64,000 nucleotides of DNA from an uncultured Candidatus Saccharibacteria bacterium (lineage in GTDB: Bacteria > Patescibacteriota > Saccharimonadia > Saccharimonadales > JACDBH01), in contig OZ246417.1 in the NCBI GenBank assembly GCA_965231105.1, positions 384,908 to 448,907 of the forward strand, in the 5' to 3' direction. Positions 19 to 36,987 of the stretch are shown here, piece after piece. How positions within the stretch are numbered: position 1 is the first letter of the stretch; every line of letters starts with the position of its first letter. A program made the translations under genes and the position numbers. The notes below the pieces were generated by a model that made no database searches, had not been told where the DNA came from, and saw nothing but the letters and a program-made list of their open reading frames with translations.

Positions 19-1362
19 TTAGCGTTCGTAGGTTTCAGCAGCGGACGTAAAGCCCGTTACTTGTGAAGCGGTTTTGCCGGGGAACTTTTCTACTTTAAGC
101 TTCTCGCCTGCTTGCACTTCGAATGCAATCGTACCTTCTACTGAGCCATTCTTTGATGGATGAATATCCGAGGCAAATGATGAGCCAGTCCAGTTCATCT
201 CATTACCAGAAACGTACTGCAATCGCTTTAATTCATATTTAGCAATACCATCGGCAGCGGTAATTTTTGATGGATCGGCGGTACCGCTCACGACGAATTG
301 CTTTGCTGCACCCTTCCAGTTTCCAATCGAAACAATCGTGTAAGTTGGATCAATATAGTCTGGGACTACGGAAAGGTGAGCATCCCAATATCGGCCACCA
401 TTATTTTCAAAACCTGAATATCCGCCACTGCCGGCCCTAAACCAGTTACCTACGAGCTTACCGGGCTGATCGTAATCAATGAGGCCACCTAAAGGTGCAA
501 CACGGCGAAGACTCTTCGCTTCAAGCTGCGCTTTGAGATCTCCTGTATAGAGGTCATATGGGCTTACGGTATGAATTTTCCAGGACTCTCCATCGTAAAG
601 CTTTGGTGTGATGAAACCGCTGAGGGTCTTCGTTGTATCAATCGGCGTCCAGTCAAAGGTACTACCGCCAATATAACCAACAATGTCACCTGCTTTTAGT
701 TCGATAGAGGTGTTTTTACTTTCGTTAGGCTGTAGATCACCAACCGCAGCTACAACTGCATCTGAAAGTTTGTGTACGTGAATATAGATCGAGAAGTAGC
801 GACATGAGTGGCTTATGACAATACGATGATCTTCTGATGCTACTTGTTGATTGCTGTCACCCACATACTGTGCGGGCATTGCCGATACACTTACGATCGT
901 ACCATCCGCAGGCATAAGCACAGGATAAGTATTATCCTTTGCATTCGGGTTCTTTGGCCCTACATACACGTGGTCTGTGGGGGTTACGTGTCCATCATTA
1001 ACCGCACCAAGCGGCCGAATGTAGGATAGGTCTTCCATGCGGAGTGGCGGAGAGGTAAAAGCAACATCTCGTTCCTTACATTCCCTACCGTTTTGTTGCA
1101 AGAATAAACTCGTCGGCGTTTCTTCTGCTGGCAATTCTTCGCTTGCCTGATGTGTATTTTGTTGATCGTTCTGTGATTTCTGAGGATTTTCCTTATTTCC
1201 TGTAAGCGCCATCACTGCACCGCCTATGAGTGCAAGCACGACCACCGCTACTCCAATAAGCAGCGGTTTATTACTTTTTAATTTGTTAATAAGATTTGGG
1301 GATTTTTGTTGTTTTACATTGGGAGACTCGGGAGTCTCCGGGGTGTTATTTGTTGTGTCCAT
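19..1362 (-). CDS. membrane-anchored exported protein with possible M23/LytM-like domain (paralog of 2172-3059)
   Basis: 447-aa ORF with a basic N-terminus followed by the hydrophobic span LLIGVAVVVLALIGGAVMAL. GHVTPTDH, YIHVHK and IELKAGDIVGYIGG resemble the HxxxD / HxH / Gly-loop of M23 peptidases. The C-terminal block aligns with ORF 2172-3059. Confidence 0.6.
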   Translation of the reverse strand: MDTTNNTPETPESPNVKQQKSPNLINKLKSNKPLLIGVAVVVLALIGGAVMALTGNKENPQKSQNDQQNTHQASEELPAEETPTSLFLQQNGRECKERDVAFTSPPLRMEDLSYIRPLGAVNDGHVTPTDHVYVGPKNPNAKDNTYPVLMPADGTIVSVSAMPAQYVGDSNQQVASEDHRIVISHSCRYFSIYIHVHKLSDAVVAAVGDLQPNESKNTSIELKAGDIVGYIGGSTFDWTPIDTTKTLSGFITPKLYDGESWKIHTVSPYDLYTGDLKAQLEAKSLRRVAPLGGLIDYDQPGKLVGNWFRAGSGGYSGFENNGGRYWDAHLSVVPDYIDPTYTIVSIGNWKGAAKQFVVSGTADPSKITAADGIAKYELKRLQYVSGNEMNWTGSSFASDIHPSKNGSVEGTIAFEVQAGEKLKVEKFPGKTASQVTGFTSAAETYER

Positions 1363-1368
1363 GGCTAC

Positions 1369-1397
1369 ATTGTGGCCGGCACGCTTATGCTTGTCAA
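1369..1397 (-). promoter_or_regulatory. sigma70-like promoter with leaderless geometry
   Basis: The minus strand reads TTGACA-17 nt-CACAAT. The hexamer ends 6 nt before the ATG at 1362, and there is no SD. Confidence 0.45.
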
Positions 1398-1455
1398 TAA
1401 TAGATGCCTTAGGACATCTGTGATATCTGAATAAAAGATGACATAATACATCCTC

Positions 1456-2175
1456 ATGAAAAGTCCTGAGCTTACAAATATTCCTTGCTTTACTGTCGAC
1501 GATGCCACTTCACAGGACGAAGCACAGAAGTGTTTTACCGAACTTGGCACAAACCTCCCCATGATAACGATACATTTTGAAGACTTAGGCGATTTATCTT
1601 CATTCCGAAAGTCCGACGCAAGTATGTGTACTGCACGAAGTGACCAGTACACAAAGATTTTTAGAAAAAAGGTAGCGCAGGCGTTTACATATATAGGAGG
1701 TATTTCGGTCACCCCTCTTGATGTTCACTCATTTCGTAATAGAAGTCGCTTTTTTCCTTCACAAAGATCATCTGTTTTGATTGCGAGTCGTCGTCTGAAG
1801 GGGCAAACCCGAGAAGATCACATAGCTGACCTAGGCTGGCATAACGATGTACATACGGACGGCCTCGATGGTGTAGTCTATGGCGCACATTTAAGTTTAG
1901 AAGGAGTAGGTACTGTAACTGCTGGATTTGCAAGGTTGACCTCTCGGGATGATCTTACGGGAATTCGTTACTATCATGAAGCAATCACACCTACACACAG
2001 TCGAAGATTTGAAGCTGGCGATCTGCACATACATATTCGTCAGGCGGCAAATGCAGGCCACGCTGATTTCGAAAAACTACCCACTACTCACCAATATACG
2101 AGTGGGGCTTTAGGTCGATACTATATCGAAGAAAGTTTCGGAATAGCTGACGATTGGCAGCATCTTGCTCGTTAG
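1456..2175 (+). CDS. hypothetical protein (uncertain gene)
   Basis: 239-aa ORF, the longest frame between the two minus-strand paralogs. No family recognised; only a His-rich WHNDVH...HIHIR...GHA stretch. No clear SD. Confidence 0.3.
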   Translation: MKSPELTNIPCFTVDDATSQDEAQKCFTELGTNLPMITIHFEDLGDLSSFRKSDASMCTARSDQYTKIFRKKVAQAFTYIGGISVTPLDVHSFRNRSRFFPSQRSSVLIASRRLKGQTREDHIADLGWHNDVHTDGLDGVVYGAHLSLEGVGTVTAGFARLTSRDDLTGIRYYHEAITPTHSRRFEAGDLHIHIRQAANAGHADFEKLPTTHQYTSGALGRYYIEESFGIADDWQHLAR

Positions 2176-3123: not shown

Positions 3124-3132
3124 TGATACAAT
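3124..3132 (+). promoter_or_regulatory. extended -10 promoter (TGaTACAAT), leaderless geometry
   Basis: TGATACAAT ends 6 nt before ATG 3139, and there is no SD between them. Confidence 0.5.
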
Positions 3133-3138
3133 CAGAAT

Positions 3139-3558
3139 ATGGCAGAACTCAAAACCACCGTTAACGATGCGAGTGTAGAAGACTTTATTAATAAGGTTTC
3201 TGATGAAACTAAGCGAAAAGATAGCCTCACGCTTCTTGAGATGTTTTCTCGTATTACGAAGGAAAAACCAAAAATGTGGGGCGGCAGTATTGTTGGTTTT
3301 GGACAGTATCACTATAAATCTGAACGTAGCAGCCAGGAGGGCGACTGGATGCTTACTGGCTTTTCGCCTCGCAAGCAAAATCTCACCCTTTATATTATGC
3401 CCGGGTTTAAAGACTATCAGTCTCTTATTGAGAAATTAGGTAAGTGCAAAACAAGTGTCGGCTGCTTGTATATTAATAAGTTATCTGATGTTGATCTTAA
3501 AACACTCGAAGAAATTATTGCGAAATCCTTTACAGACATGAAGGCTCAACACAACTAA
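3139..3558 (+). CDS. DUF1801 / YdhG-like protein
   Basis: 139 aa. VEDFINKV...PKMWGGSIVGFGQYHYKSERS...FSPRKQNLTLYI is typical of the DUF1801 family. About half the residues are identical to ORF 35916-36350. Confidence 0.75.
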   Translation: MAELKTTVNDASVEDFINKVSDETKRKDSLTLLEMFSRITKEKPKMWGGSIVGFGQYHYKSERSSQEGDWMLTGFSPRKQNLTLYIMPGFKDYQSLIEKLGKCKTSVGCLYINKLSDVDLKTLEEIIAKSFTDMKAQHN

Positions 3559-3569: not shown

Positions 3570-3611
3570 TTGACATTATGTGTTGACAAGCCATACGTCT
3601 CGTACTAACAT
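3570..3611 (+). promoter_or_regulatory. promoter with tandem TGTTGACA boxes upstream of the ArsR gene
   Basis: TGTTGACA is repeated 13 nt apart (TTGACA at 3570-3575 and 3583-3588). The second box is followed by 17 nt and then TAACAT (3606-3611). ATG 3620 lies 8 nt after the hexamer and there is no SD. Confidence 0.45.
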
Positions 3612-3619
3612 TTAACCAT

Positions 3620-3946
3620 ATGGTTGAATATGAAATACAACTAGACTCGATCTTCCATTCCCTTTCCGATCCTATTAGGCGGGATATGCTGCATCGTGTT
3701 GCAGGCCGTGAACTTTCAGTTAGCGATTTAGCAGAAAAATACGACGTCAGTTTTGCTGCTATATCAAAGCACTTGAAAGTTTTGCAGCAAGCGAGGCTGA
3801 TTCATAAACGAAAGGAGGGTAAGAAATATATGGTAACGTTAGTGCCTGAGACATTAAAGGACGCTGACTATTATCTAGAGCGATACCGTAAAGTGTGGCA
3901 AGGCCGCTACGACAAACTGGATATGTTATTAAAAGAAGGAGAATAA
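3620..3946 (+). CDS. ArsR/SmtB-family transcriptional regulator
   Basis: 108 aa with the winged-HTH signature LSDPIRRDML...LSVSDLAEKYDVSFAAISKHLKVLQQARLI. Confidence 0.85.
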   Translation: MVEYEIQLDSIFHSLSDPIRRDMLHRVAGRELSVSDLAEKYDVSFAAISKHLKVLQQARLIHKRKEGKKYMVTLVPETLKDADYYLERYRKVWQGRYDKLDMLLKEGE

Positions 3947-4513: not shown

Positions 4514-5617
4514 CTATGAAGCTAAATCTTGTACCGTCTTAAGCATAGCGAATAGTTTAAGTTCGCGCTGTGTAAGTTCTCGTGAGCCAGAAGGCATAGA
4601 CGCATTTATGCTTCGCGCAGAAGGCAGACTATTAGCTTCTAAGAAGTATGGCGTATCTGTACCCGACTGTTGGATAATATCTATTCCGATGCACATACCG
4701 ATACTTGGACCTAATGTCCTTGCTATATTCCGAGCAGCCTCAGTGACTTCAGTGGCGGGTTCACGTGTTATCGGGTTTATACCGTGTCCTTCAAGAATTT
4801 CCATTTGCTGATCATCAAGATTGCCGAGCTCAAATGGTCGTCCTGCGAAATCCAAACCAATATCTCGACGTCCTTCATTGGTATTTGAAGTAATGCTGCG
4901 AGCATTGAGATAGTATGGACTACCCGGCTTAACCAAAGCCTTATATTCCTCCGTGACACTTTCTGCGCTCATCTTAGCATTACCGTTCTGCTTACCCGCC
5001 GCGAGCATAGCAATCGCAATAATTGTGCCGGTTGGAGTCATTGTATAGCGATAGCTTGAGGACAATTCACCGGGAGTTTCAATAAATTCCTCTATAACAG
5101 TATTTCCAAGGCTGCTTTGCTTTTTACTACGCAAAAACTTTTTCAGCTTGCCCTCTTGATCCGCATCCTCAATGAGAAATTTGTTTTCGCCCCGATTGGA
5201 GTCGAGGGGCTTAAAGACAAAAGGCGTTTCTAAACCTGCCCTGCCCTTTACATAGTCAATTCCCGATACTTGCCCAGGAATATGTATCTTAGGTGCGTAG
5301 TCATTCAAAATCCCATTTATATATTCAAGGGGCTTGTATTCATCAAAAATTGCGTACCTGTTAGATCCAGGCTTGCAATCTATCATTGGAGCACCTGGCT
5401 GAATCTTAAGGTAATCAATACCATAATCCGGTAAGGTCGGCGCTACTATAGCAAGTTGTTCGGCCCATTCTTCCCAGAGTCCAGCCATGCTACGAGCTTG
5501 CCATGGTTCCATACGCGCCTGACCACGCGCCATTAGCTGCATGGTCATAAGTAAAGAATCAACAAAAGCCGGCCTCGGACTTGGAGGATAATCAATAATG
5601 CGTAACTGTTCGTTCAT
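4514..5617 (-). CDS. ATP-grasp-like protein
   Basis: 367 aa. FVFKPLDSNRGENKFLI and GIDIIQQSGTDTPYFLEANSLPS resemble ATP-grasp (RimK/GshB-like) motifs. The assignment is tentative. Confidence 0.5.
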   Translation of the reverse strand: MNEQLRIIDYPPSPRPAFVDSLLMTMQLMARGQARMEPWQARSMAGLWEEWAEQLAIVAPTLPDYGIDYLKIQPGAPMIDCKPGSNRYAIFDEYKPLEYINGILNDYAPKIHIPGQVSGIDYVKGRAGLETPFVFKPLDSNRGENKFLIEDADQEGKLKKFLRSKKQSSLGNTVIEEFIETPGELSSSYRYTMTPTGTIIAIAMLAAGKQNGNAKMSAESVTEEYKALVKPGSPYYLNARSITSNTNEGRRDIGLDFAGRPFELGNLDDQQMEILEGHGINPITREPATEVTEAARNIARTLGPSIGMCIGIDIIQQSGTDTPYFLEANSLPSARSINASMPSGSRELTQRELKLFAMLKTVQDLAS

Positions 5618-5624
5618 TAATAAT

Positions 5625-5633
5625 ATAATAACA
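5625..5633 (-). promoter_or_regulatory. extended -10 promoter (TGtTATTAT), leaderless geometry
   Basis: The minus strand reads TGTTATTAT, then 7 nt, then ATG (5617). There is no SD. Confidence 0.45.
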
Positions 5634-5662
5634 TATTTGTGAGAATATGTCTAAATGCTGAA

Positions 5663-6214
5663 TTAAAGCGTCTGTATAAATTCACGAACCTGCTTAAACG
5701 GCTTCATGTTCTCAGCATATGTGCGCTCATTCTCCTCTTGAGGCATCTCAGCCCTGGTAATATCGTACCCCTCATTAATAAAGAATCTATCAAAGCCAAA
5801 ACCGTTCTCACCACGTGGTTCAGTAGCGATACTTCCCGGTAATTCACTATCGAAAAACCTCATGTCTTCGCCATCAAAATACCCATATGTACAGCGAATA
5901 ATGGCACTTCGGTCTTCAAACCCATCGAGCATCCGACAACATGCTTCATCACCAGCAATTTCCACAAACCATTTTATGTATGGTCCGGGCAATTCACCCA
6001 AAGCACAGAACACAAGGCTGACATCCTCTACCAATACCGGAGCTTTGCAGATTTGATAAGCCTGTCTTAACTTATGCTCCACAATAACATGAAGGTCGGT
6101 AGACTGTAGTTCATCAAGCTCAAGTGCCCTATGAGGTATCTGCACACCCAATTGCCTTGAAAGATAGTCTGTCTTACTTTGATTTCCGGTAATAAATAAA
6201 GGTAACTCTGCCAT
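5663..6214 (-). CDS. non-canonical purine NTP pyrophosphatase (RdgB/HAM1 family)
   Basis: 183 aa with HAM1 hallmarks: FITGNQSK, LVEDVSL, GELPGPYIKW, PRGENGFGFDRFF. Confidence 0.85.
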   Translation of the reverse strand: MAELPLFITGNQSKTDYLSRQLGVQIPHRALELDELQSTDLHVIVEHKLRQAYQICKAPVLVEDVSLVFCALGELPGPYIKWFVEIAGDEACCRMLDGFEDRSAIIRCTYGYFDGEDMRFFDSELPGSIATEPRGENGFGFDRFFINEGYDITRAEMPQEENERTYAENMKPFKQVREFIQTL

Positions 6215-6220
6215 AAACTA

Positions 6221-6229
6221 ATCATAACA
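6221..6229 (-). promoter_or_regulatory. extended -10 promoter (TGtTATGAT), leaderless geometry
   Basis: The minus strand reads TGTTATGAT, then 6 nt, then ATG (6214). There is no SD. Confidence 0.45.
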
Positions 6230-6276
6230 GAGGGATCAGGGATTATATGCTAGTTTCGTATAGTATTATTAGTGCT

Positions 6277-6678
6277 ATGGAAAATAAGCCTGCATCTGAA
6301 CAAATAGACGATATTATCAAAAATTATGGTGGATGGAAGGGCGATATATTATCCCAGTTACGTGCAGTGATCAATGCTGCCGACCCAGAGCTTACCGAAG
6401 AAGTGAAATGGAAAATGCCCACCCGGCCTGAGGGCCTACCGGTCTGGTCACATAACGGCATTATGTGTATTGCTGAAACATTTAAGAATGATATAAAACT
6501 GGTATTTTTTAAAGGCGTGCATATGAAAGACCCAAAGAAACTTTTTAATGCGCGTCTTAATAGCAGTACTGATCGTGCGATTGAGTTTCGCGAAGGTAGC
6601 AAAATTGATGAAGCCGGCATAAAAGCACTTGTCGTTGAAGCCGCAGCATTAAATGCATTAAAAACCGGCAAAAAATAA
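6277..6678 (+). CDS. DUF1801 / YdhG-like protein
   Basis: The ORF 6247-6678 is trimmed to the MENKPASE start. TATTAT at 6264-6269 ends 7 nt before this ATG. EEVKWKMP...WSHNGIMCIAETFKNDIKLVFFKG is DUF1801-like. Confidence 0.65.
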   Translation: MENKPASEQIDDIIKNYGGWKGDILSQLRAVINAADPELTEEVKWKMPTRPEGLPVWSHNGIMCIAETFKNDIKLVFFKGVHMKDPKKLFNARLNSSTDRAIEFREGSKIDEAGIKALVVEAAALNALKTGKK

Positions 6679-7104
6679 ATGAAGGGTAAGAGTGACACAT
6701 CCGGCAGATCCTCGGTTTTAGATGAGGGACCTTTTTATCATGGAACAAAAGCTGATTTAAAAGTGGGAGATCTTTTAACTGCCGGATTTCAATCAAACTA
6801 TAGACCAGAAGTTACTATGAATCACATATACTTTACCGCTTCAGCTGATGGTGCAGGACTTGCAGCAGAACTATCGAAAGGTACACGACATCCACGAGTT
6901 TATATCGTTGAGCCGATAGGAGACTTTGAAGATGATCCAAATGTTACTAATAAAAAGTTTCCCGGTAACCCGACACGTTCATACCGCAGTCATGAGCCAC
7001 TAAAAGTTGTTGGCGAAGTAACGGACTGGAAAAGACTCACTCCCAATGAGCTTCAAGAGTGGCGCGAGAGGTTGGCAAATATAAAAGGTGAGATTATTAA
7101 TTAA
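6679..7104 (+). CDS. arr: NAD+--rifampin ADP-ribosyltransferase
   Basis: 141 aa. FYHGTKADLKVGDLL...YFTASADGAGLAAEL...VYIVEPIGDFEDDPNVTNKKFPGNPTRSYRSHEPLKVVGEVTDW is nearly colinear with known Arr proteins. The ATG directly abuts the upstream TAA. Confidence 0.9.
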   Translation: MKGKSDTSGRSSVLDEGPFYHGTKADLKVGDLLTAGFQSNYRPEVTMNHIYFTASADGAGLAAELSKGTRHPRVYIVEPIGDFEDDPNVTNKKFPGNPTRSYRSHEPLKVVGEVTDWKRLTPNELQEWRERLANIKGEIIN

Positions 7105-7221
7105 TATAGTGCTAAAAACTCCTAAGAAGTTATTCGCAGCACTAATGTTTTGCTAGGCTTACATATCTAGAACCTGCCCTAATTCTAGATAATCTTGATC
7201 TAATAACGTATTATTGTTTTG

Positions 7222-7575
7222 ATGAGCACAGATGATAGTGAGGCAGAAAATAATGCGCGAATTTTTGGCATATTGAGCCTAGTTTTTAGTTTCATTCCAG
7301 TTGTTGGTTTAACACTAGGAATTATTGCTACTCAAAAAGGCCGCAACGATAGATCATCATTTGCAGTAACAGCCGGCTGGATAGGAATATTACTCTCTTT
7401 AGTTATTGCAGGCTTATTTGGCTACTGGCAATATACGAGTATGCGTAGTAACGAAAAGTATGTGCGTTATGAAAAATGCATACAAGACCGAACCAGTGCA
7501 GAACAGCTCCAGTTGTCTATGGGCCTAATCACATCTTCTGGGATCGAAGCACAATGCGACTGGGCAAGGCCTTAA
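7222..7575 (+). CDS. small membrane protein (DUF4190-like)
   Basis: Two hydrophobic spans, IFGILSLVFSFIPVVGLTLGIIA and WIGILLSLVIAGLFGYW. TATTAT at 7209-7214 ends 7 nt before the ATG. Confidence 0.55.
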   Translation: MSTDDSEAENNARIFGILSLVFSFIPVVGLTLGIIATQKGRNDRSSFAVTAGWIGILLSLVIAGLFGYWQYTSMRSNEKYVRYEKCIQDRTSAEQLQLSMGLITSSGIEAQCDWARP

Positions 7576-7710: not shown

Positions 7711-8256
7711 CTATTTTACGGTCGGCTTAGGACCTGAATGCCTTGCTCTGGGAGTCCTTTCATTTGATGGAACATACTGATCTATATCTGTTATCCAAAG
7801 CCTTGCAACATCATGCCACTTCATTATTTCTGTAAATTTTTTGTGACCTAAATCATTACGTATTGCTAAAATTAAATCGCCGAAGTATTCCATACTAGCG
7901 ATATTCCAGGTTGTGTCACCTTTATCAGAAGCTTCTTGATCAAACTTATATATATGCTGCATGAAATCACCGGCGCTCTTAATAACTTCATTCGATGCAA
8001 ATGTGAGGAGTTTAGGAAAATATTTTTTTAACCTTTTTGCCGTCTCGTCACTGTCAGTATCATCGCTTCCAGAATAAATATCATAGAGAAAGACAATAAA
8101 GTCCGAGTACAGCTTCTGCTTCTTGGCTTTTAATTCAGTCCTTAAATTTAGGTTTTTTGAATATGACTGACTAAGAAGTATACCTAGTAAGCTAGAAACA
8201 CCCGCAAGAATTACAACCCAAATCTGTGAATCCATAATAGCAGCAGCTAAAAACAA
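7711..8256 (-). CDS. hypothetical N-terminally anchored protein
   Basis: 181-aa ORF immediately downstream of tRNA-Gln on the same strand. It has the TM span IWVVILAGVSSLLGILL and AT-rich codons. The start is uncertain (TTG 8256 or ATG 8235). Confidence 0.5.
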   Translation of the reverse strand: MFLAAAIMDSQIWVVILAGVSSLLGILLSQSYSKNLNLRTELKAKKQKLYSDFIVFLYDIYSGSDDTDSDETAKRLKKYFPKLLTFASNEVIKSAGDFMQHIYKFDQEASDKGDTTWNIASMEYFGDLILAIRNDLGHKKFTEIMKWHDVARLWITDIDQYVPSNERTPRARHSGPKPTVK

Positions 8257-8269
8257 TAAAGTTGACGCC

Positions 8270-8344
8270 TGGCTGGGGATGAGGGATTCGAACCCCCGAA
8301 TGACGGGACCAGAACCCGTTGCCTTACCACTTGGCCAATCCCCA
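8270..8344 (-). tRNA. tRNA-Gln (anticodon CUG)
   Basis: Manual cloverleaf: acceptor TGGGGAT/ATCCCCA, anticodon arm ACGGG-TTCTGGT-CCCGT, T-loop TTCGAAT, encoded CCA. Confidence 0.9.
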
Positions 8345-8376: not shown

Positions 8377-8401
8377 TTCTCGCTAGCGAGAAGTGTATAA
8401 T
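8377..8401 (+). promoter_or_regulatory. perfect 16-bp palindrome (candidate operator) abutting a TATAAT -10
   Basis: TTCTCGCTAGCGAGAA (8377-8392) is its own reverse complement. TATAAT at 8396-8401 lies upstream of the micro-ORF/sodC pair. Confidence 0.5.
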
Positions 8402-9112: not shown

Positions 9113-9119
9113 GCTTGTA

Positions 9120-28690: not shown

Positions 28691-29167
28691 ATGGCCTGCC
28701 TTTTTATTTTTACCACGATGTGTAGGTTGTAGGCTATGACAATTTGGGCAAAGTATCCTTAAATTTTCAAGTCGGTTATCTTGCCGATTGCCATTTATAT
28801 GATCAAGCTCTACCGGTATTCTGCCATCCAGAGACCTTTGCTCCCAGCCACATAACTCACATTGCGGTCGCTTGATGCCTGTTTTAAATAGTCTGGCCTT
28901 TAGCTTATAGCTCTGAATATTGCTATTTTCTACAAGTAGAGTTTCTAGCGGAGCTTCAATTTTTGGTTTGAATGTTAGTCCAACATTCCAGCCCATACCT
29001 GTAAAGTGTGCTGTAGATAAGTTCAGCTCACTAATCTGACGCTTTACTTGCTCATAGTTACCGCCCGCAGGAACCAAGCCTAACTCAATTAAGACACCCC
29101 TGACACTGCGACCATTTTTTACTGCCACTATGAGTTGTTCTTTTGACCAGCTACGATTTTTTGGCAT
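28655..29167 (-). CDS. HNH endonuclease (free-standing, homing-type) embedded between two tRNA genes
   Basis: 170 aa with HNH core ELDHINGNRQDNRLENLRILCPNCH plus the Cys pair CELCGW. The last 12 codons are encoded by the 5' half of tRNA-Leu, and the stop TAA is the tRNA anticodon triplet. Confidence 0.8.
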   Translation of the reverse strand: MPKNRSWSKEQLIVAVKNGRSVRGVLIELGLVPAGGNYEQVKRQISELNLSTAHFTGMGWNVGLTFKPKIEAPLETLLVENSNIQSYKLKARLFKTGIKRPQCELCGWEQRSLDGRIPVELDHINGNRQDNRLENLRILCPNCHSLQPTHRGKNKKAGHARVVEWYTRST

Positions 29168-29213
29168 ACACGTAATTTAGCACATCTATCACGTTTACCA
29201 AGACGGATTATAC

Positions 29214-29287
29214 TGGAGGCACCTACGGGTAACGCTCCCGTCTACGAGGTTTTGCAGACCTCTGCCTAACTTCTCGGCCAAGGCGCC
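29214..29287 (-). tRNA. tRNA-Cys (anticodon GCA) with non-canonical T-loop
   Basis: Acceptor GGCGCCT/AGGTGCC, anticodon arm GAGGT-CTGCAAA-ACCTC, discriminator U, encoded CCA. The T-loop is AGCGTTA instead of TTCRANN, and the D-loop lacks GG. Confidence 0.6.
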
Positions 29288-29374: not shown

Positions 29375-29383
29375 TGCTATAAT
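29375..29383 (+). promoter_or_regulatory. extended -10 promoter (TGcTATAAT)
   Basis: TGCTATAAT ends 9 nt before ATG 29393. There is no SD, so the leader would be 2-3 nt. Confidence 0.5.
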
Positions 29384-29392
29384 TGCCCACTT

Positions 29393-30376
29393 ATGAAAAC
29401 ACGTGCAGTTATTGCTGGAACAGTTTTCGGCCTTGCGGCTTTAGCGCCTGCAGTTGCTGAAGCTGGCCCAAACGGTGTGTATACATGTACCGATATTAAT
29501 GGCGGTACCATTGATGCAGCCGATGGCCTTCCTATTAAAGAAATGCAGATAGAGCTTGGTTTGTATGCTGATGGTGTTTTTGGTCCCCAGACCTGCAAGG
29601 CAGTAACGAACGAGCTTACCGAACAAGGAATGTTAAGCGGTAAGGGCGGAACGGTAAAGATTGGTCCTAGGGCTGTACAGGCCGTACTTGGCAGCAAGCC
29701 TGCTGAGATTCCTACTTCTACAATACCGAGCACCACAACTGCTAATACCACTCCTTCACCAAACGCCTGCCCTACAAATGTAACCAGTTCGGGTGAAATT
29801 AGTGTAGCCTGCCGTAATGAAGCAGTGAATAAACTTCGTGCCGGTGGGTTTGTAGACGAAAGTCTTGCCCGTGCCGTAAAAGCCTTCCAAATTGAAGCTG
29901 GTGTTTCCGGAAATGGCCAAGCTGGTTTTGGTGTCTTAGGTCCTAAGACTTATTCAAGCATTATGAGCGGTAGCGGCTTTAATACTATTAATGCCACTGC
30001 TGAATTACAAAACGGTATCTTTATCGACCTTTCAGACCAGACACTGAAGATGTATAAGAACGGCTCGTTAGTTGTTGGCGCCTTAGTTTCTACCGGTAAA
30101 GATGGCATGGAAACTCGCACAGGATCAAAGAAAATTCAGCGTACTCGTACCGATGAAGACGGTTGGGTAACCTCAGACCTTCAGGCCGCTGGTACTGATC
30201 CTGCTATGTATAAGCCATACTATTTTGACGGCGGGCAAGCTATCCACGGCACCCGTGTTGAATCAAAGCTTGGCACACCTGCAAGCTCAGGTTGTGCGCG
30301 CACAGACAATCTCGTGCAAGATACCCTCATTGCCAAAGGCATGAAGGTGGGCATGAAAGTTATCGTTCAGGAATAG
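29393..30376 (+). CDS. L,D-transpeptidase with two PG-binding repeats
   Basis: 327 aa with signal peptide MKTRAVIAGTVFGLAALAPAVAEA. PG_binding_1-like repeats: LGLYADGVFGPQTCKAV and FQIEAGVSGNGQAGFGVLGPKTYSSI. YkuD catalytic motif IHGT...SSGCART. Confidence 0.88.
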   Translation: MKTRAVIAGTVFGLAALAPAVAEAGPNGVYTCTDINGGTIDAADGLPIKEMQIELGLYADGVFGPQTCKAVTNELTEQGMLSGKGGTVKIGPRAVQAVLGSKPAEIPTSTIPSTTTANTTPSPNACPTNVTSSGEISVACRNEAVNKLRAGGFVDESLARAVKAFQIEAGVSGNGQAGFGVLGPKTYSSIMSGSGFNTINATAELQNGIFIDLSDQTLKMYKNGSLVVGALVSTGKDGMETRTGSKKIQRTRTDEDGWVTSDLQAAGTDPAMYKPYYFDGGQAIHGTRVESKLGTPASSGCARTDNLVQDTLIAKGMKVGMKVIVQE

Positions 30377-30995: not shown

Positions 30996-31024
30996 TTGAC
31001 TTGGTGAGAGTTACGCTTCATAAC
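30996..31024 (+). promoter_or_regulatory. sigma70-like promoter, leaderless geometry (helicase gene)
   Basis: TTGACT-17 nt-CATAAC. The hexamer ends 7 nt before ATG 31032 and there is no SD. Confidence 0.45.
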
Positions 31025-31031
31025 TTATTGC

Positions 31032-33731
31032 ATGGCAACAGTTGGTCAACAGATACAAGAAGCTAACAAGGCAATATGCGAAAACATAGAGAGCTTAAAA
31101 GATAATCGTCCTCTGTTATCTAAGAATATACTGTCACAAGCTAGAAATCTGGTTGAAGGCGTTGCGGTGCTCGTGCATACAGGCGACATCAACCGTGAAT
31201 TTGACTATCCTGCAACTGGACCGGCGATTGCTCACGCAGGATCGGGTAACAAAAATATTAATTTTCTAAGCCGCTTTCATGATCTGATATTAGAAAGTGC
31301 ATCACACTATACATTAAATGGCGATATGTCTGAGCGACTAATGCTGAAGTACTACGAGTACCTCCTCCGTATACGTGATTTACTACTGAAATCTTACAAT
31401 ATTAAATCACTCTCGAATCTCGAGGACTTCCCTGTAGATATTGACCCTGCATTGCGCGAATATCATGAAAAAATATCAAAACAGATACAAGCATTTAGAT
31501 TAAGTCCTAGCGAAGGTTCGCGCAGCAGATACTACATACATAATGTAAAGCCATTCTTTGTGCAGGGACGAATATATTATGAAGTAACCTTTCACAATGC
31601 AAGTGATAGAACGGCAAAGTTTGATCGTTTCATTGCCTTTACGGATATAGATATCACTGGCAAATATGCTGCATATCTATCTCTTAAGCGAGATGCAATT
31701 GATGTTATTGGCCACAATATGCCAATAATCTTAATAACTGATTGGGCTGTATCTATTCGACCATGTGAGTTTAATAATTTCGCTAAACTTTTTGGGGATG
31801 AGATTAAGGTCGAGTCCTCACAGGCAGAGTACCGTGCTCTGATGTCTCACTTAACTCAAACGTCTTCGAGCCTGCTAGACATTATGAAGCTTGATGACTC
31901 TGCATTTATGAACCTACAAAATACTGTTTTGGAGAAAGCTAGAACAGCTCCAAAAATATTTCCAGTACTAGATAAAGCTAGGAAACTTATAGCTAATAGT
32001 AGTGATGGTAGCAATGTCATTAGATATCTCTTACTGCGAATGAATAATGTGAATTTGAAAGACCAATATCATCCTGCAGAGTGCAGTCTTTTATCGAATC
32101 TTTGCTTAAACAATGGCTGCAAACCATTTGATTCTATGCCCTTTTGCACATCTCCCAAAAGGCATAATCCAAGAATTAGTGATCTATTTCAAAGTTTGGA
32201 TGCTGAGTCACGAACACACGAACTGCTGGCTCGTAAAATCAAAACGAACGTTCAACAAGAAAGCAGGCTGTATACACCTTTAGAAGAATTAGATAGCTTC
32301 GAAGAGGTAGATACATTAATAGCTCGGTACAACAGCGCTCTTTGGCGAGGGCACCGTTATCGACGAAGCATTGCGAAAGACAAAGGACACCTTTTTATAC
32401 GCGAGTATGAAGAGGACACGTATGCAATTATCAGAGAACTACAGCAGCATGCGACCAATGGATTAGACGGCTATGAAACTGCAGTTGATCGCTGGACTCA
32501 AGAAACCGCATTACAATTGGATGATCCTACGAAAGTCGAAGCTTTGAAATTACTCTTTATCAAATCACAGGTAGCCTTGATTTACGGCGCGGCAGGCACG
32601 GGGAAAACGAGAATGATCGAATACGTCGCTGATATGTTTTCAGACAAGAACATACTTTTCCTCGCTCATACTAATCCAGCAATAAACAATCTAGTACGAA
32701 GAGTTAAAGTACAGAATGGAACATTTAAAACAATTGCTAGCCACAATTACTCAGGCGATAGCACTGAATATGACATATTGGTCGTTGATGAGTGTAGCAT
32801 CGTGAGCAATGCAGATTTCCTAGCTGTACTTCAAAATACAAAGTTCAAACTACTGCTGTTAGTTGGTGACGTTTATCAGCTCGAGCCAATAGAATTTGGT
32901 AACTGGTTTGCACTCGTGCCGTCTTTTCTGCCAAATACTTCAATATTTGAGCTGACAGAGCCTTATAGGACAAAAAATCCTAATCTGCTTAAATTGTGGA
33001 ATTCGGTTCGTAAACTTGAAAACAACATTGCTGAAGTAATTGCCCAAAATGGCTATTCAGCAAAATTGGATGAGTCATTATTTACGGCACAACAAGAAGA
33101 TGAAATCATTCTCTGCCTGAACTATGACGGGTTATATGGAATAAATAATATCAATCGCTTTTTACAGAGTGCAAACCCTAATAAAGCAGTTACGTGGGGT
33201 GTTGCAACCTATAAAATAGGTGATCCAATACTCTTTAATGACAGCGACCGATTTCGTCCGGTAATTTATAACAATCTCAAAGGTGTCATCGTTGATATAC
33301 AAAAATCCCCAGATTCCATACAATTTGATGTTCAGTTGGACCGAACGGTGACAGAGCTGGACACTTATGGAACTGAGCTGAAATTAGTAGGCGATTCTAT
33401 CGTGCAGTTCACGGTTTATAGGCGTGTCAGCTCAGATGATGACGATGAAACCTCAAATACCATTATTCCCTTTCAAGTAGCTTACGCTGTATCAATTCAT
33501 AAAGCGCAAGGCCTAGAATATGATTCAGTCAAAATTGTCATTACAGATGCGAATGAAGATGATATCACGCACAGTATTTTTTATACCGCGATTACTAGAG
33601 CCCGCAACAGCCTTGTCATCCATTGGTCGCCAGAAGTGCAAAATGCAATTATCGAGAAAATGGACAGACCTAATAGCAAAAAGGATGCTGGGCTGATTGC
33701 CGCCAGGCGCAATTTGAGACTAGTACAATAG
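31032..33731 (+). CDS. SF1 (RecD/Dna2-like) helicase/AAA ATPase with ~510-aa orphan N-terminal region
   Basis: 899 aa. Walker A LIYGAAGTGKTRMI, Walker B ILVVDECSIV, LLLVGDVYQLEPI, UvrD_C-like YAVSIHKAQGLEYDSVKIV and YTAITRARNSLVI. Residues 1-510 match nothing I recognise. Codons are visibly AT-rich. Confidence 0.8.
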   Translation: MATVGQQIQEANKAICENIESLKDNRPLLSKNILSQARNLVEGVAVLVHTGDINREFDYPATGPAIAHAGSGNKNINFLSRFHDLILESASHYTLNGDMSERLMLKYYEYLLRIRDLLLKSYNIKSLSNLEDFPVDIDPALREYHEKISKQIQAFRLSPSEGSRSRYYIHNVKPFFVQGRIYYEVTFHNASDRTAKFDRFIAFTDIDITGKYAAYLSLKRDAIDVIGHNMPIILITDWAVSIRPCEFNNFAKLFGDEIKVESSQAEYRALMSHLTQTSSSLLDIMKLDDSAFMNLQNTVLEKARTAPKIFPVLDKARKLIANSSDGSNVIRYLLLRMNNVNLKDQYHPAECSLLSNLCLNNGCKPFDSMPFCTSPKRHNPRISDLFQSLDAESRTHELLARKIKTNVQQESRLYTPLEELDSFEEVDTLIARYNSALWRGHRYRRSIAKDKGHLFIREYEEDTYAIIRELQQHATNGLDGYETAVDRWTQETALQLDDPTKVEALKLLFIKSQVALIYGAAGTGKTRMIEYVADMFSDKNILFLAHTNPAINNLVRRVKVQNGTFKTIASHNYSGDSTEYDILVVDECSIVSNADFLAVLQNTKFKLLLLVGDVYQLEPIEFGNWFALVPSFLPNTSIFELTEPYRTKNPNLLKLWNSVRKLENNIAEVIAQNGYSAKLDESLFTAQQEDEIILCLNYDGLYGINNINRFLQSANPNKAVTWGVATYKIGDPILFNDSDRFRPVIYNNLKGVIVDIQKSPDSIQFDVQLDRTVTELDTYGTELKLVGDSIVQFTVYRRVSSDDDDETSNTIIPFQVAYAVSIHKAQGLEYDSVKIVITDANEDDITHSIFYTAITRARNSLVIHWSPEVQNAIIEKMDRPNSKKDAGLIAARRNLRLVQ

Positions 33732-34656: not shown

Positions 34657-34665
34657 TGTTATAGT
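34657..34665 (+). promoter_or_regulatory. extended -10 promoter (TGtTATAGT), leaderless geometry
   Basis: TGTTATAGT ends 6 nt before the second in-frame ATG (34672, MKHTNTW...). Confidence 0.45.
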
Positions 34666-35472
34666 ATGCTCATGAAACACACTAATACATGGATTATTCC
34701 CGCCAATCCAAATATTTATGATCATCCCAGTGCATTCGCAAAGTATGGAATTATAACTTGGGCACTTAAGATAAATGTAGACGTAGGCGACACCATCTAT
34801 GTCCGTGTTAGCGGGCCCGGTGCTCATACCCTGTATAAATGTATTGCAGTAAAAGTAGGCGTCCCGAGAACAGATATGGTTGGGGCCGAATTTTGGAACG
34901 AACCATTTGAATACGATGAAGAAAGGCAGTATGTCGATCTAAAACTTCTCGATACAACAGAAGACGTAGGAGTTAGTTTTAAAGAGCTGCAGCAGCATGG
35001 CCTGAACGGGTCACACCAAGCAGCGCATCACTTAATAGATCCTCTCAAGGCATACATCGAATCATTTTTTCGGACTACCAATGGTCAGAAAATCGAGGAG
35101 ATTGCGGACAGCATCGCCACCGAAGATGATTTACAAAATATTACCAGTGCACTCAAGGCTCTATCTAGTCAGTTGCCACCTAAAAGAATTGCACTTATAG
35201 CTCAGAAAATTGCCAGGAATCCAAAAACAGCTCGCTTAGTTAAAGAAAGTAAACAGTACGTTTGTGAGATCTGTAACCGTAAACCCTTCATACAAAAGAA
35301 CGGCAAGCCATATGCAGAAGCAGATCATATAGAACAACTTGGTGGTGAGACAAGAGGCCTCGACACCCCAGAAAACATACGCTGTCTTTGCGCCCAGTGC
35401 CATGCTATAGTCACCTATGGATCACAGGAAGTTATTAACAAGCTACTAAGCTCAACCAAATGGCGATCGTAA
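34666..35472 (+). CDS. PUA-like (EVE/ASCH-type) N-terminal domain fused to HNH nuclease; candidate modification-dependent (type IV) restriction enzyme
   Basis: 268 aa; the likely true start is ATG 34672. The N-terminus WIIPANPNIYDH...WALKINVDVGDTIYVRVSGPG..LYKCIAVKV resembles PUA-fold reader domains. The C-terminus CEICNRKPF...AEADHIEQL...NIRCLCAQCHAIV is an HNH motif. Confidence 0.65.
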   Translation: MLMKHTNTWIIPANPNIYDHPSAFAKYGIITWALKINVDVGDTIYVRVSGPGAHTLYKCIAVKVGVPRTDMVGAEFWNEPFEYDEERQYVDLKLLDTTEDVGVSFKELQQHGLNGSHQAAHHLIDPLKAYIESFFRTTNGQKIEEIADSIATEDDLQNITSALKALSSQLPPKRIALIAQKIARNPKTARLVKESKQYVCEICNRKPFIQKNGKPYAEADHIEQLGGETRGLDTPENIRCLCAQCHAIVTYGSQEVINKLLSSTKWRS

Positions 35473-35915: not shown

Positions 35916-36350
35916 ATGGCAACAGAAAATAAAACCCAGGAAACAGACAACTCCGTTTCGGACTTTATTAACTCGCTTAATAACGAGCAGGTGACGAGCG
36001 ACTGTTTAGAGCTTATTGAGATGATGAGCAAGATAAGCGGGCATGAACCAAAAATGTGGGGTCCTAGTATTATCGGCTTTGATACATATCACTACAAATA
36101 TGAGAGTGGTCGTGAAGGTGATGCACCGGTAATCGCCTTTTCGCCCAGAAAAAACAATATTACCGTCTATGTAGATGAAACCGCCCGATTCCCAGAATTT
36201 TTAGCAAAGCTTGGGAAACATACAACGGGTAAGGTTTGTGTTTACTTCAAGCATTTAAGTGATATTGATACGTCTGTACTTTCACAGCTCATAGAAAAGT
36301 CTTACAGCTATACCAAATCCCTGAATACCAGCGAATACAGATCGCAGTAA
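35916..36350 (+). CDS. DUF1801 / YdhG-like protein
   Basis: 144 aa. VSDFINSL...PKMWGPSIIGFDTYHYKYESGREGD...FSPRKNNITVYV identifies it as a paralog of 3139-3558. Confidence 0.75.
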   Translation: MATENKTQETDNSVSDFINSLNNEQVTSDCLELIEMMSKISGHEPKMWGPSIIGFDTYHYKYESGREGDAPVIAFSPRKNNITVYVDETARFPEFLAKLGKHTTGKVCVYFKHLSDIDTSVLSQLIEKSYSYTKSLNTSEYRSQ

Positions 36351-36378
36351 AGTAAATCACTGCCTTTTTTACTCAGTT

Positions 36379-36387
36379 TGGTACTAT
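36379..36387 (+). promoter_or_regulatory. extended -10 promoter (TGgTACTAT), leaderless geometry
   Basis: TGGTACTAT ends 6 nt before ATG 36394 and there is no SD. Confidence 0.5.
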
Positions 36388-36393
36388 GAAACT

Positions 36394-36987
36394 ATGAGAA
36401 AGATAATTGTCTTATCGTTTATTACCCTAGATGGTGTAATGCAAGCACCGGGCGGACCGGACGAAGATTCTTCCGGTGGGTTTAAATATGGGGGTTGGGT
36501 CGCACCATATTTTGATGAAGCTTCTGGCAAAGTCATGGAAAAGCAGATGAAACCTGCAGATCTTCTGCTCGGGAGAAAGACGTTTGATATTTTTGCTTCA
36601 TATTGGCCTGAGCACTCAGACAGCTGGCCAGGTATTAATGATGTCACGAAATACGTCTTAAGCAATACAAAGAAAAAGTCAGATTGGAAAAATTCAGTCT
36701 TTCTTACAAGTGCAGCGGATATCGAAAAACTCAAAAAATCAGAAGGTCCAGATCTTCAAGTACATGGCAGCGGCCAGCTTACCCAGTTGCTTCTCGAACA
36801 TGATTTAGTAGATGAACTGTGGCTCAAGTTTTTCCCATTAACGCTCGGCTCAGGAAAAAAGCTGTTTGAAAGCGGAACGATCCCGGCAGCATTTACCCTT
36901 ATCGAAACTGTAACCACGCCAAGCGGAGTAATCTTTGCTAATTATAAGAGAGCTGGAAAAGTCGAAACAGGCACTGTCGGAGCTTAA
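36394..36987 (+). CDS. dihydrofolate reductase-like protein (RibD C-terminal domain family)
   Basis: 197 aa. MRKIIVLSFITLDGVMQAPGGPDED...LLLGRKTFDIFASYWPE...LQVHGSGQLTQ is typical of the YwjB/RibD_C family. Confidence 0.8.
   Translation: MRKIIVLSFITLDGVMQAPGGPDEDSSGGFKYGGWVAPYFDEASGKVMEKQMKPADLLLGRKTFDIFASYWPEHSDSWPGINDVTKYVLSNTKKKSDWKNSVFLTSAADIEKLKKSEGPDLQVHGSGQLTQLLLEHDLVDELWLKFFPLTLGSGKKLFESGTIPAAFTLIETVTTPSGVIFANYKRAGKVETGTVGA

Follow-up and report, generated by a model that had tools for sequence, protein, structure and literature searches.

Promoter geometry consistent with leaderless mRNAs in Saccharibacteria

Described leaderless systems and the layout of the window

Leaderless initiation is itself already known in other bacteria, and its genomic signature has been described for GeneMarkS-2 group C (Lomsadze et al. 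2018, PMC6028130), in which a Pribnow box lies 6–8 nt from the starts of first genes, Shine-Dalgarno (SD) sites are found elsewhere and 25–50% of transcripts are predicted to be leaderless. The members of this group named in the text of that paper are mainly Actinobacteria and Deinococcus-Thermus with a few Proteobacteria and Firmicutes, and Saccharibacteria or CPR are not mentioned there. In Mycobacterium tuberculosis, M. smegmatis and Deinococcus deserti, as summarized in PMC6028130 and PMC12641261 (Cortes et al. 2013; de Groot et al. 2014), the -10 element adjoins an AUG at which transcription also begins, and leaderless genes, which carry no SD, coexist with SD-led genes. Archaeal leaderless mRNAs (group D) likewise begin at the start codon, but their signal is a TATA-type box located some 26 nt before it (PMC6028130). 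Extended -10 promoters of Escherichia coli and Gram-positive bacteria combine TGnTAnnnT with a poor -35 and have a good -35 where TGn is absent; this class by itself implies no positioning relative to the start codon.

The window, a 64,000-nt stretch from a tiny Saccharibacteria (TM7, Patescibacteria) genome of about 45% GC, appears from its sequence to have the known group C architecture. Thus, about twenty genes carried a -10 box 6–9 nt before the ATG and lacked an SD, SD sites preceded most other genes, the start codon was ATG in all 21 curated candidates, and the layout was seen at roughly 40% of operon-leading genes, which falls within the 25–50% of the group C description. As in the mycobacterial and Deinococcus systems, as far as these are covered by the two sources above, genes without an SD stand beside SD-led genes; the present case differs from them in the small genome, in its base composition, in the extended -10 form of about half of its promoters and in that it is drawn from sequence whereas theirs rest on dRNA-seq. 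As in the extended -10 class, TG occurred one base before the hexamer and offset a weak -35, but the promoters in the window are in addition placed so as to put the predicted transcription start on the start codon. An archaeal-type arrangement was not found: boxes peaked with their ends 6–7 nt from the start codon, at the bacterial -10 position and with TGn and TTGACA, and no peak was present about 26 nt upstream.

Candidate promoters and their genes

The original prediction named 13 hexamer-ATG arrangements between positions 1362 and 36394, and each was found in its predicted place and at its predicted spacing. This range proved too narrow, however, since at least 7–8 further sites extend to 47.9 kb, among them those at 1456, 21899, 29167, 40007, 41669, 46254 and 47855. 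The candidate promoters would be of two kinds, namely extended -10 elements (TGnTAnnnT) with a poor -35 and -35/-10 pairs of the form TTGACA-17-nAnnnT.

A TGn motif preceded the hexamer at ten candidates (coordinates and strand of each feature in brackets). These were GTGATA-16-TGaCATAAT(1442–1447)-8-ATG(1456) (1420–1458, +), before a 239-aa orphan that is the divergent partner of 1362; TGaTACAAT(3127–3132)-6-ATG(3139) (3124–3141, +), before a DUF1801 protein; TAGACA(5648–5653)-17-TGtTATTAT(5625–5630)-7-ATG(5617) (5615–5653, -), before a 367-aa orphan; TGtTATGAT(6221–6226)-6-ATG(6214) (6212–6229, -), before Ham1/ITPase; and TGtTATACT(21907–21912)-7-ATG(21899) (21897–21915, -), before a MurF-like Mur ligase that heads a murF-aminotransferase pair. 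Further along were TTGGTA-16-TGcTAAATT(29174–29179)-6-ATG(29167) (29165–29201, -), before an HNH_3 endonuclease; TGcTATAAT(29378–29383)-9-ATG(29393) (29375–29395, +), before a YkuD L,D-transpeptidase, where, with a spacer of 9, transcription may begin at the A itself or leave a 1–4 nt leader; TGtTATAGT(34660–34665)-6-ATG(34672) (34657–34674, +), before an HNH protein that heads a three-gene operon; TGgTACTAT(36382–36387)-6-ATG(36394) (36379–36396, +), before a RibD_C reductase; and TGcTATACT(40014–40019)-6-ATG(40007) (40005–40022, -), before a 101-aa orphan, the promoter reaching from the 24-nt gap back into the 3' end of the preceding gene.

Perfect TTGACA boxes were found in TTGACA(1392–1397)-17-CACAAT(1369–1374)-6-ATG(1362) (1360–1397, -), before a 447-aa orphan; in TTGACA(3583–3588)-17-TAACAT(3606–3611)-8-ATG(3620) (3583–3622, +), before an ArsR-type regulator heading a two-gene operon whose second gene, AHSA1 (3948), has the SD AGGAG; and in TTGACA(14867–14872)-17-CATAGT(14890–14895)-8-ATG(14904) (14867–14906, +), before a 118-aa orphan, a site predicted as TAGTAT-6-ATG that exists but is better read in the present form. 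Similarly, the -10 predicted at 31032 was present and, although it lacks the canonical final T and is weak, lies 17 nt after TTGACT, as TTGACT(30996–31001)-17-CATAAC(31019–31024)-7-ATG(31032) (30996–31034, +), before an 899-aa SF1 helicase.

The remaining arrangements were TATTAT(6264–6269)-7-ATG(6277) (6264–6279, +), before a DUF1801 gene that is followed by arr (6679, TAAATG junction); TAGATA-17-TATTAT(7209–7214)-7-ATG(7222) (7186–7224, +), before a 117-aa membrane protein; TATACT(9107–9112)-7-ATG(9120) (9107–9122, +), before a 223-aa orphan; TACTAT(41676–41681)-6-ATG(41669) (41667–41681, -), before an FAD-linked oxidase; TATAAT(46263–46268)-8-ATG(46254) (46252–46268, -), before the Xaa-Pro aminopeptidase PepP and within the 3' end of uvrC; and AATAAT(47842–47847)-7-ATG(47855) (47842–47857, +), before a class A PBP (PBP1A). 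The hexamers CACAAT and AATAAT, like CATAAC, are weak, and 41669 is a weaker case in which GAGG lies 13 nt upstream and other possible starts lie downstream. The genes at 40007 and 46254, 9–24 nt behind a same-strand gene, could also be translated from read-through transcripts.

Promoter hallmarks were strongly enriched among these candidates, although curation of the list by eye introduces a slight bias into the comparisons of TGn and SD. Thus, TGn occurred in 10 of 21 against a background of 6.1% (p = 1.4e-7), perfect TTGACA in 3 of 21 against 0.3%, and a -35 with at least 5/6 matches in 5 of 21 (p = 6e-5). Nine of the ten TGn candidates had a -35 with at most 4/6 matches and the good -35 boxes tended to go with candidates that lacked TGn, the classic pattern of compensation.

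The original prediction that leaderless mRNAs cluster among monocistronic, accessory genes was borne out in part. In the two accessory islands (1–9.8 kb and 29–37 kb) 14 of 22 genes were candidates, against 7 of 42 outside them (Fisher p = 0.0002), and most candidates were single genes. Three of the 13, however, lead operons (arsR-AHSA1, DUF1801-arr and HNH-AHSA1-DUF1801), and the added sites include housekeeping genes (MurF-type ligase, PepP and PBP1A).

Spacing, Shine-Dalgarno contrast and start codons

The distance between hexamer and ATG was examined in promoter-anchored tests made without gene calls, to which the bias of by-eye curation does not apply, as well as by gene. In the window, an ATG opening an ORF of at least 90 aa was found at a spacer of 6–9 for 11 of 50 strong promoter-like sites and at spacers of 1–5 or 10–14 for none of the 50. 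A match to TATAAT of at least 5/6 occurred at spacers 5–9 before 12 genes as compared with 1–5 in control windows taken from the 10–44 nt range, and under a looser rule of at least 4/6 there were 22 genes against 11.2 +/- 3.0 in shuffles (p = 0.0008). In 969 kb of pooled Saccharibacteria-type DNA, window included, counts at spacers 6, 7, 8, 9 and 10 were 37, 31, 13, 9 and 9, respectively, with none at spacers 2–5; the 90 cases at spacers 6–9 compare with about 8.4 expected from a flat background (Poisson p ~1e-59). No peak was seen in the pooled DNA for GTG, TTG, CTG, ATA or AAG, ATG alone peaking at 6–9 nt; bacterial leaderless mRNAs begin with AUG and only rarely with GUG.

Transcription preferentially starts at a purine preceded by a pyrimidine. 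A pyrimidine preceded the ATG in 72 of the 90 pooled cases, a context that fits this preference and so favours the A of the ATG as the transcription start. Moreover, the order of spacers (6 > 7 > 8 > 9) mirrors the -10-to-start distance, which is centred 7 bp downstream (PMC12641261). Within the window, the geometry was found at 20 of 46 first genes against 2 of 18 internal operon genes (p = 0.019).

These results bear on the reading that the hexamers arise by chance in AT-rich sequence, or form an SD-independent translation signal within leaders transcribed from upstream promoters in the style of the Bacteroidota-type group B. The intergenic DNA is indeed AT-rich, scanning 1–20 kb with a loose sigma-70 consensus gave no excess (35 sites against 35.9 in shuffles) and several internal genes of the window also lack an SD. 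Set against this, the peak is only one to two bases wide at 6–7 nt, is specific to ATG and is accompanied by TGn and by TTGACA at a 17-nt spacing, and internal operon genes hardly carry the geometry, whereas in group B the motifs precede internal genes too (PMC6028130). Near-confinement to first genes together with -35 and TGn features thus does not match group B, and we regard this reading as scarcely credible.

The SD contrast drawn in the original prediction was also evident. The mean anti-SD duplex energy was -0.6 kcal/mol for candidates and -4.7 for other genes (p = 1e-5), and duplexes of -5 kcal/mol or stronger were noted for 1 of 21 candidates as compared with 23 of 43 other genes and 16% of random positions; the interval between hexamer and ATG is physically too short for an SD. 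Conversely, DUF1428, MazG (start 39392) and the genes at 52046, 55192 and 61362 in the orphan block had duplexes of -7 to -10 kcal/mol. In the SD-led sodC operon (8395–8547, +), TATAAT (8395–8400) is followed by a 29-nt leader with AAAGGAGGG and a micro-ORF (ATG 8430) that joins sodC (start 8545, GGGAGGAG) by an ATGA overlap, and before a KH-domain gene (12227–12291, -) TTGAAG-18-TATAAT (12262–12291) is followed by a leader, about 29 nt long and containing AAGGAG, and then by ATG 12226. A third class of genes, missed in the original prediction, had neither an SD nor the leaderless geometry and comprised coupled internal genes and genes with very short leaders. Thus AHSA1 (35477) and DUF1801 (35916) of the HNH operon lack an SD and follow gaps of 4–7 nt, while at trmD (11093–11138, -) TTGGCA-16-TG-TATAAT (11111–11138) ends 15 nt before ATG 11095, which leaves a leader of about 8 nt without an SD; the uvrC leader is about 10 nt.

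The 16S anti-SD, also proposed as a check, was read in other genomes, the window having no 16S gene. All 52 readable genes, selected by a presumed TM7 primer signature, ended in GGATTACCTCCTTTCT with CCTCC present, indicating that the anti-SD core is intact, in agreement with PMC9297842.

Another reading accepts the promoters as real but takes the annotated ATGs to be misplaced, with initiation further downstream behind ordinary leaders. The longest-ORF rule does err in the window, by 31 codons at uvrC and 28 at trmD, and the FAD oxidase (41669) has downstream candidate starts with SD-like sequences. For most candidates, however, neither another start within 20 codons nor a downstream SD was present, and alignments to domains or homologues begin within 1–8 residues of the proposed ATG. 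The Pfam domain begins at residue 6 of Ham1, which fixes its start at 6214, at residue 2 of RibD_C (36394) and at residue 8 of PepP (46254, AMP_N). The conserved N-terminus ME[DN]KPAS places the DUF1801 start at 6277 rather than 6247 in 11 homologues, the public gene call being 10 codons too long, while the public call for 7222 is the same ATG. In four other genomes, too, public gene calls coincide with ATGs 6–8 nt past strong -10 boxes. Wholesale misplacement of starts is therefore very unlikely.

Less easily dismissed, although still unlikely, are near-leaderless mRNAs that start 1–5 nt before the ATG at many sites and are read by a short-leader mechanism. Spacers of 8–10 nt are common in the pooled counts, the 8–9 nt spacers of 1456, 3620, 14904, 29393 and 46254 could yield 1–4 nt leaders in place of true 5'-AUG ends, and the 8–10 nt leaders of trmD and uvrC, without an SD, imply that the organism tolerates very short leaders. 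Nevertheless, at the modal spacers 6 and 7 the canonical start, 7–8 bp past the hexamer, coincides exactly with the A, and the sequence context of the ATG favours the same base.

Sigma-70 promoters set so that transcription starts on, or within 1–3 nt of, the A of the ATG therefore remain, in our judgement, very probably the correct explanation. The predicted start on or next to the ATG and the two predicted modes of initiation, one of them SD-led, draw their support from sequence statistics (TGn, TTGACA, anti-SD duplex energy and spacer distribution), and the actual transcription start is inferred from the spacing; with a -10 box 6–9 bases before the ATG, the mRNAs probably begin at the start codon. 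Such mRNAs would have no 5' UTR and no SD, so translation would start by binding of ribosome and initiator tRNA to the 5'-terminal AUG, direct recruitment of this kind being expected by analogy with leaderless mRNAs of other bacteria. Downstream genes of these operons would use an SD or stop-start coupling, and other operons would have ordinary 25–60 nt leaders with GGAG-type SDs pairing with the intact anti-SD.

Distribution in Saccharibacteria and implications

The 6–7 nt peak recurred in other Saccharibacteria-type DNA totalling about 900 kb and was absent from Bacillaceae control loci. In the single non-Saccharibacteria Patescibacteria locus compared (L072), the signal was seen at 0 of 48 strong sites, which hints that the trait may be confined to Saccharibacteria and not shared by CPR at large. 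The geometry was kept in other genomes despite diverged sequence at DUF1801, the 9120 gene, murF and trmD. Thus, a -10-like hexamer lay 7–9 nt upstream in 4 of 5 DUF1801 orthologues (the window and three other genomes), the 9120 orthologue in L001 had TACTAT-7-ATG with its N-terminus shifted by one codon, murF had TACAAT-6-ATG in L013 and L086 while its L002 orthologue was SD-led, and relatives' trmD and murF orthologues were of the leaderless type. On these comparisons the leaderless layout is a property of the whole Saccharibacteria lineage and not of one organism. A description of it in Saccharibacteria was not found in the literature; the one start-site set found for TM7x is RNA-seq-derived and described as imprecise (PMC12641261).

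We propose only tentatively, and with more doubt than confidence, that leaderless initiation is an ancestral, clade-wide expression grammar of Saccharibacteria, the first in CPR, serving at least a third of operons and possibly tied to the biology of these organisms. If true, it might be linked to pared-down ribosomes, bS1 in CPR having only 3–4 domains (PMC9297842). It might also be linked to actinobacterial hosts with the same grammar, in which case genes exchanged between epibiont and host would be expressible without re-tooling.

Gene callers tuned to ribosome-binding sites mis-place leaderless starts, and database proteomes of Saccharibacteria and CPR therefore probably contain systematic N-terminal errors. 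Genetic tools for Saccharibacteria are only now emerging, and a bare TGnTATAAT 6–7 nt before the ATG, as a putative native expression signal, would provide a compact design rule. Heavy users of leaderless mRNAs are otherwise mostly Actinobacteria, the hosts of cultivated Saccharibacteria, and Deinococcus-Thermus; a reduced-genome epibiotic lineage would now join this short list, and ancestry, ribosome simplification and host convergence would become testable questions.

Promoter-like hexamers before start codons

The leaderless geometry was confirmed at all 13 sites of the original prediction, each with a -10-like hexamer ending 6–9 nt upstream of an ATG and no purine-rich stretch between hexamer and start codon. 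Canonical -35 boxes were present (arrangements are written with spacers in nt) at ATG 1362 on the minus strand (TTGACA-17-CACAAT-6-ATG) and at ATG 3620 (TTGACA-17-TAACAT-8-ATG) and ATG 14904 (TTGACA-17-CATAGT-8-ATG) on the plus strand, and the sites at 31032 (+; TTGACT-17-CATAAC-7-ATG) and 5617 (−; TAGACA-17-TGtTATTAT-7-ATG) were counted with them. The predicted list, although real in its geometry, was too narrow, and further sites were noted from 1456 to 47855. These additional sites were TGaCATAAT-8 at ATG 1456 (+; 239-aa orphan), TGtTATACT-7 at ATG 21899 (−; a MurF-like ligase heading a murF-aminotransferase pair), TGcTAAATT-6 at ATG 29167 (−; HNH endonuclease), TGcTATACT-6 at ATG 40007 (−; 101-aa orphan), TATAAT-8 at ATG 46254 (−; PepP), the weaker cases TACTAT-6 at ATG 41669 (−; FAD oxidase) and AATAAT-7 at ATG 47855 (+; class A PBP), and a doubtful TAAAAT-7 at ATG 41960 (+; 145-aa ORF). 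With these, the leaderless-type share came to about 40% of the operon-leading genes in the window. The S16 gene (12747, GACAAT-7) was dropped as a candidate, given a much better promoter, TTGACA-17-TAAAAT, 62 nt upstream.

Only 62 bp separate the divergent ATGs 6214(−) and 6277(+), and the intervening DNA consists of two back-to-back core promoters only; such pairs show the genome compactness that the leaderless layout confers. In the region 6277-7104 (+), the DUF1801 gene that begins at 6277 is directly abutted, through a TAAATG junction, by a gene for a rifampin ADP-ribosyltransferase (Arr-ms family, E = 1e-47), a notable gene for an epibiont given that its cultivated relatives have Actinobacteria as hosts. 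The HNH_3 endonuclease ORF (28655-29167, −) lies between tRNA-Cys and tRNA-Leu (region 28606-29287), and at its 3' end shares 36 nt with tRNA-Leu (28606-28690).

The predicted concentration in mono-cistronic accessory genes held as a tendency: of the 22 genes in two accessory islands (1-9.8 kb and 29-37 kb), 14 were candidates, versus 7 of the 42 genes outside them (p = 0.0002). The tendency has exceptions, since 3 of the 13 originally predicted sites head operons and housekeeping genes are among the candidates.

Enrichment of the 6–9 nt spacing over shuffled and control regions was evident from scans of hexamer-to-start distances anchored on either genes or promoters. In the gene-anchored scan, starts were set mechanically at the first ATG of each ORF of 90 aa or more that did not overlap another (64 genes in the window). 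A TATAAT-like hexamer (A2 and T6 fixed, 5/6 matches or better) lay at spacers of 5–9 nt in 12 of these 64 genes, as compared with 1–5 genes in each of seven control windows 10–44 nt upstream. Under a looser 4/6 rule, 22 genes were found versus 11.2 ± 3.0 when each upstream region was shuffled (p = 0.0008), and nearly all of the signal was carried by operon-leading genes (20/46 versus 2/18 of the others, p = 0.019). In the promoter-anchored scan, which is independent of gene calls and scores strong promoter-like sites for a following ATG, 11 of the 50 sites in the window were followed at spacers of 6–9 nt by the opening ATG of an ORF of 90 aa or longer and none at spacers of 1–5 or 10–14 nt, while a second cluster of ATGs at 33–36 nt represented ordinary leaders. 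A scan with a generic sigma-70 consensus revealed no excess of promoter-like sites (35 versus 35.9 in shuffles); only the position of these sites relative to ATGs, not their total, is informative.

Three spacing-independent features of the sequence back the identification of the candidate hexamers as putative promoters. An extended -10 element (TGn) was present at 10 of 21 candidates, the frequency over all comparable hexamers of the window being 6.1% (p = 1.4e-7). Likewise, a -35 box with at least 5/6 matches occurred at 5 of 21 versus 2.1% (p = 6e-5), and a perfect TTGACA at 3 of 21 versus 0.3%. The two elements also compensate for one another, TGn promoters having poor -35 boxes and TTGAC(A/T) sites lacking TGn.

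Shine-Dalgarno sites and start codons

Differences in initiation signals were noted from duplex energies calculated between positions -22 to -3 and a generic bacterial-type anti-Shine-Dalgarno (anti-SD) tail (CACCUCCUUU); TM7-type 16S ends carry UUACCUCCUUU, with an identical pairing core, ACCUCCUUU. Mean duplex energy was -0.6 kcal/mol for the 21 candidates (1/21 at or below -5) versus -4.7 kcal/mol for the 43 other genes (23/43 at or below -5), the proportion for random positions being 16% (Mann-Whitney p = 1e-5). In contrast with this result, a simple test of SD-word exclusivity was not significant (p = 0.22).

Genes predicted to be SD-led did have SD sites. Thus, the sodC operon has a TATAAT (8395-8400), a 29-nt leader with AAAGGAGGG, and a micro-ORF of about 39 codons from 8430 that runs into sodC through an ATGA overlap; DUF1428 (34188) and MazG (39392) have strong SDs, as do the genes at 52046, 55192 and 61362 in the orphan block (49.9-61.4 kb). 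The eight large ORFs of this block (49912-61362; 208–959 aa) lacked Pfam matches and have a GC content (0.47–0.49) a little higher than elsewhere in the window; most are led by an SD or coupled by ATGA overlaps.

A third, smaller class of genes had neither an SD nor a leaderless-type hexamer. It comprised internal genes with gaps of 0–18 nt or ATGA overlaps (arr 6679, ligA 26075, 35477 and 35916) and genes whose leaders are very short and contain no SD (about 8 nt for trmD, about 10 nt for uvrC). In the region 8235-8344 (−), a 174-aa gene that begins 34 nt past a same-strand tRNA-Gln also lacks both signals, and so may be expressed from a tRNA co-transcript. The nusB start (region 14560-14600, −) has no SD, and the leader motif before it, ..GGAA(A)TTTAACAAT-ATG, is conserved across six or more Saccharibacteria genomes (that of the window and those of comparison loci L001, L004, L005, L007 and L018), some of which have a TATACT promoter about 35 nt upstream.

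Accurate start codons matter here since the longest-ORF rule fails in this window. The longest uvrC ORF (46264-47856, −) opens 31 codons ahead of the conserved N-terminus MTQLQEKLLNLPKNPGVYF; the real start is ATG 47763, with TGaTATACT 17 nt upstream and a leader of about 10 nt without an SD. An apparent overlap between the start codons of divergent uvrC (47856) and PBP (47855) genes was rejected as an artefact of longest-ORF starts, because uvrC truly begins at 47763. Similarly, trmD starts at ATG 11095 rather than GTG 11179 (−), the near-consensus TTGGCA-16-TG-TATAAT (within 11093-11138, −) ending 15 nt before this ATG and leaving a leader of about 8 nt that contains no SD. Between trmD and the KH-domain gene, rimM is missing and an opposite-strand 201-aa ORF is found (11119-11724, +); an opposite-strand gene likewise lies at the corresponding place in comparison locus L085.

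Leaderless genes are given wrong starts by gene callers that depend on ribosome binding sites. The public call for the DUF1801 protein is 143 aa from ATG 6247 (6247-6678, +; also in loci L081 and L087), whereas all 11 homologues start at the Met encoded at 6277 (ME[DN]KPAS...), giving 133 aa; the 10-codon extension is not conserved in them. The first Pfam domain residue is 6 in Ham1 (6214), 2 in RibD_C (36394) and 8 in PepP (46254), and for most candidates no other possible start codon occurs within 20 codons.

Spread of the geometry among Saccharibacteria

At about 45% GC, and with nine tRNA genes but no rRNA gene, the window encodes a leucyl-tRNA synthetase (15257-17689, −) with at most 72% identity to proteins in a species-representative genome collection, its close relatives all being from Candidatus Saccharibacteria/Saccharimonadales MAGs, with which the gene order nusB-NUDIX-RNase III-S16-KH-trmD is syntenic. 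The window accordingly belongs to a Saccharibacteria (TM7, Patescibacteria/CPR) genome. Genes identical to those of the window are present in Logan assemblies of ERR2586216/7.

The leaderless-type geometry is a lineage trait of Saccharibacteria. In 19 Saccharibacteria loci (314 kb), gene-anchored counts at spacers 6–9 were 13, 13, 6 and 5 over a background of about 3, and promoter-anchored counts were 37 of 333 sites at 6–9 with none at 2–5. Four further genomes reached via DUF1801 homologues (80 kb) gave 18 of 96 at 6–9 and none at 2–5, most of these ATGs being publicly called gene starts, and 80 metagenome loci with TM7-type 16S (510 kb) gave 12 at spacer 6, 10 at spacer 7 and none at 0–5. 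Pooled with the window (969 kb), these sets held 90 cases at spacers 6–9 versus about 8.4 expected; GTG, TTG, CTG, ATA and AAG showed no peak in the pooled set. Counts in the control set of 20 Bacillaceae loci (431 kb) from the same synthetase search were flat or depleted at 6–9 nt (4/471, no peak), and none of 48 sites was leaderless-type in L072, a single non-Saccharibacteria Patescibacteria locus and thus too small a sample to generalise from.

Among 49 bacteria, the position of the transcription start site centres on 7 bp downstream from the -10 element (PMC12641261), corresponding to a spacer of 6 in the terms used here. Spacers in the pooled DNA were ranked 6 > 7 > 8 > 9 with none at 2–5, the pattern to be expected were transcription to start at the A of the ATG, and a pyrimidine immediately preceded the ATG in 72 of 90 cases. 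Transcription starts favour a pyrimidine at -1 and a purine at +1, and the pooled -1 pyrimidines fit this preference.

The geometry is kept by orthologues while the sequence drifts. Thus, DUF1801 orthologues carried TATTAT-7, TACTAT-9, TAATAT-8 and TATCAT-7 in four genomes and were SD-led and internal to an operon in a fifth. The 9120 gene has TATACT-7 in the window versus TACTAT-7, with a one-codon shift, in L001; murF is leaderless-type in the window, L013 and L086 and SD-led in L002; and trmD, short-leadered in the window, is leaderless-type in L085 (5249, TGnTACAAT-7-ATG).

Since no Saccharibacteria 16S gene was found in the window or compared genome loci, the anti-SD was read from the 80 metagenome loci (L089-L168), chosen by a TM7 16S signature that we take to be the 1177R primer site. 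All 52 readable 16S 3' ends in these loci, which are not from the source genome, finished in ...GGATTACCTCCTTTCT, so that the CCUCC core is intact. TM7-signature ends have GGATTA in place of the GGATCA of most bacteria. The intact core agrees with a survey in which loss of the anti-SD motif was confined to a Parcubacteria subgroup (PMC9297842).

Relation to known leaderless systems

The core prediction, that leaderless or near-leaderless promoters and two modes of initiation would be used, is supported by evidence that is entirely sequence-based. The architecture of the window matches the definition of GeneMarkS-2 group C, in which a Pribnow box lies 6–8 nt from the start of operon-first genes, SD sites occur at the remaining genes and 25–50% of transcripts are leaderless (PMC6028130); the mechanism is therefore already known. 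Group C is described as characteristic of Actinobacteria (90%) and Deinococcus-Thermus (97%) and as rare in Proteobacteria and Firmicutes (PMC6028130). A full-text literature search for leaderless mRNAs in Saccharibacteria, TM7, Patescibacteria or the Candidate Phyla Radiation returned only reference-list or unrelated mentions; an unremarked prior group C classification in the GeneMarkS-2 species tables, outside this search, is possible. A TM7x transcriptome preprint says nothing about start sites, UTRs or promoters, and the sole TM7x start-site set found was RNA-seq-derived and flagged as imprecise (PMC12641261).

The finding is of practical value for gene-start annotation and expression design in Saccharibacteria, and of some evolutionary interest because the hosts of cultivated Saccharibacteria are Actinobacteria, the phylum classically rich in leaderless mRNAs.
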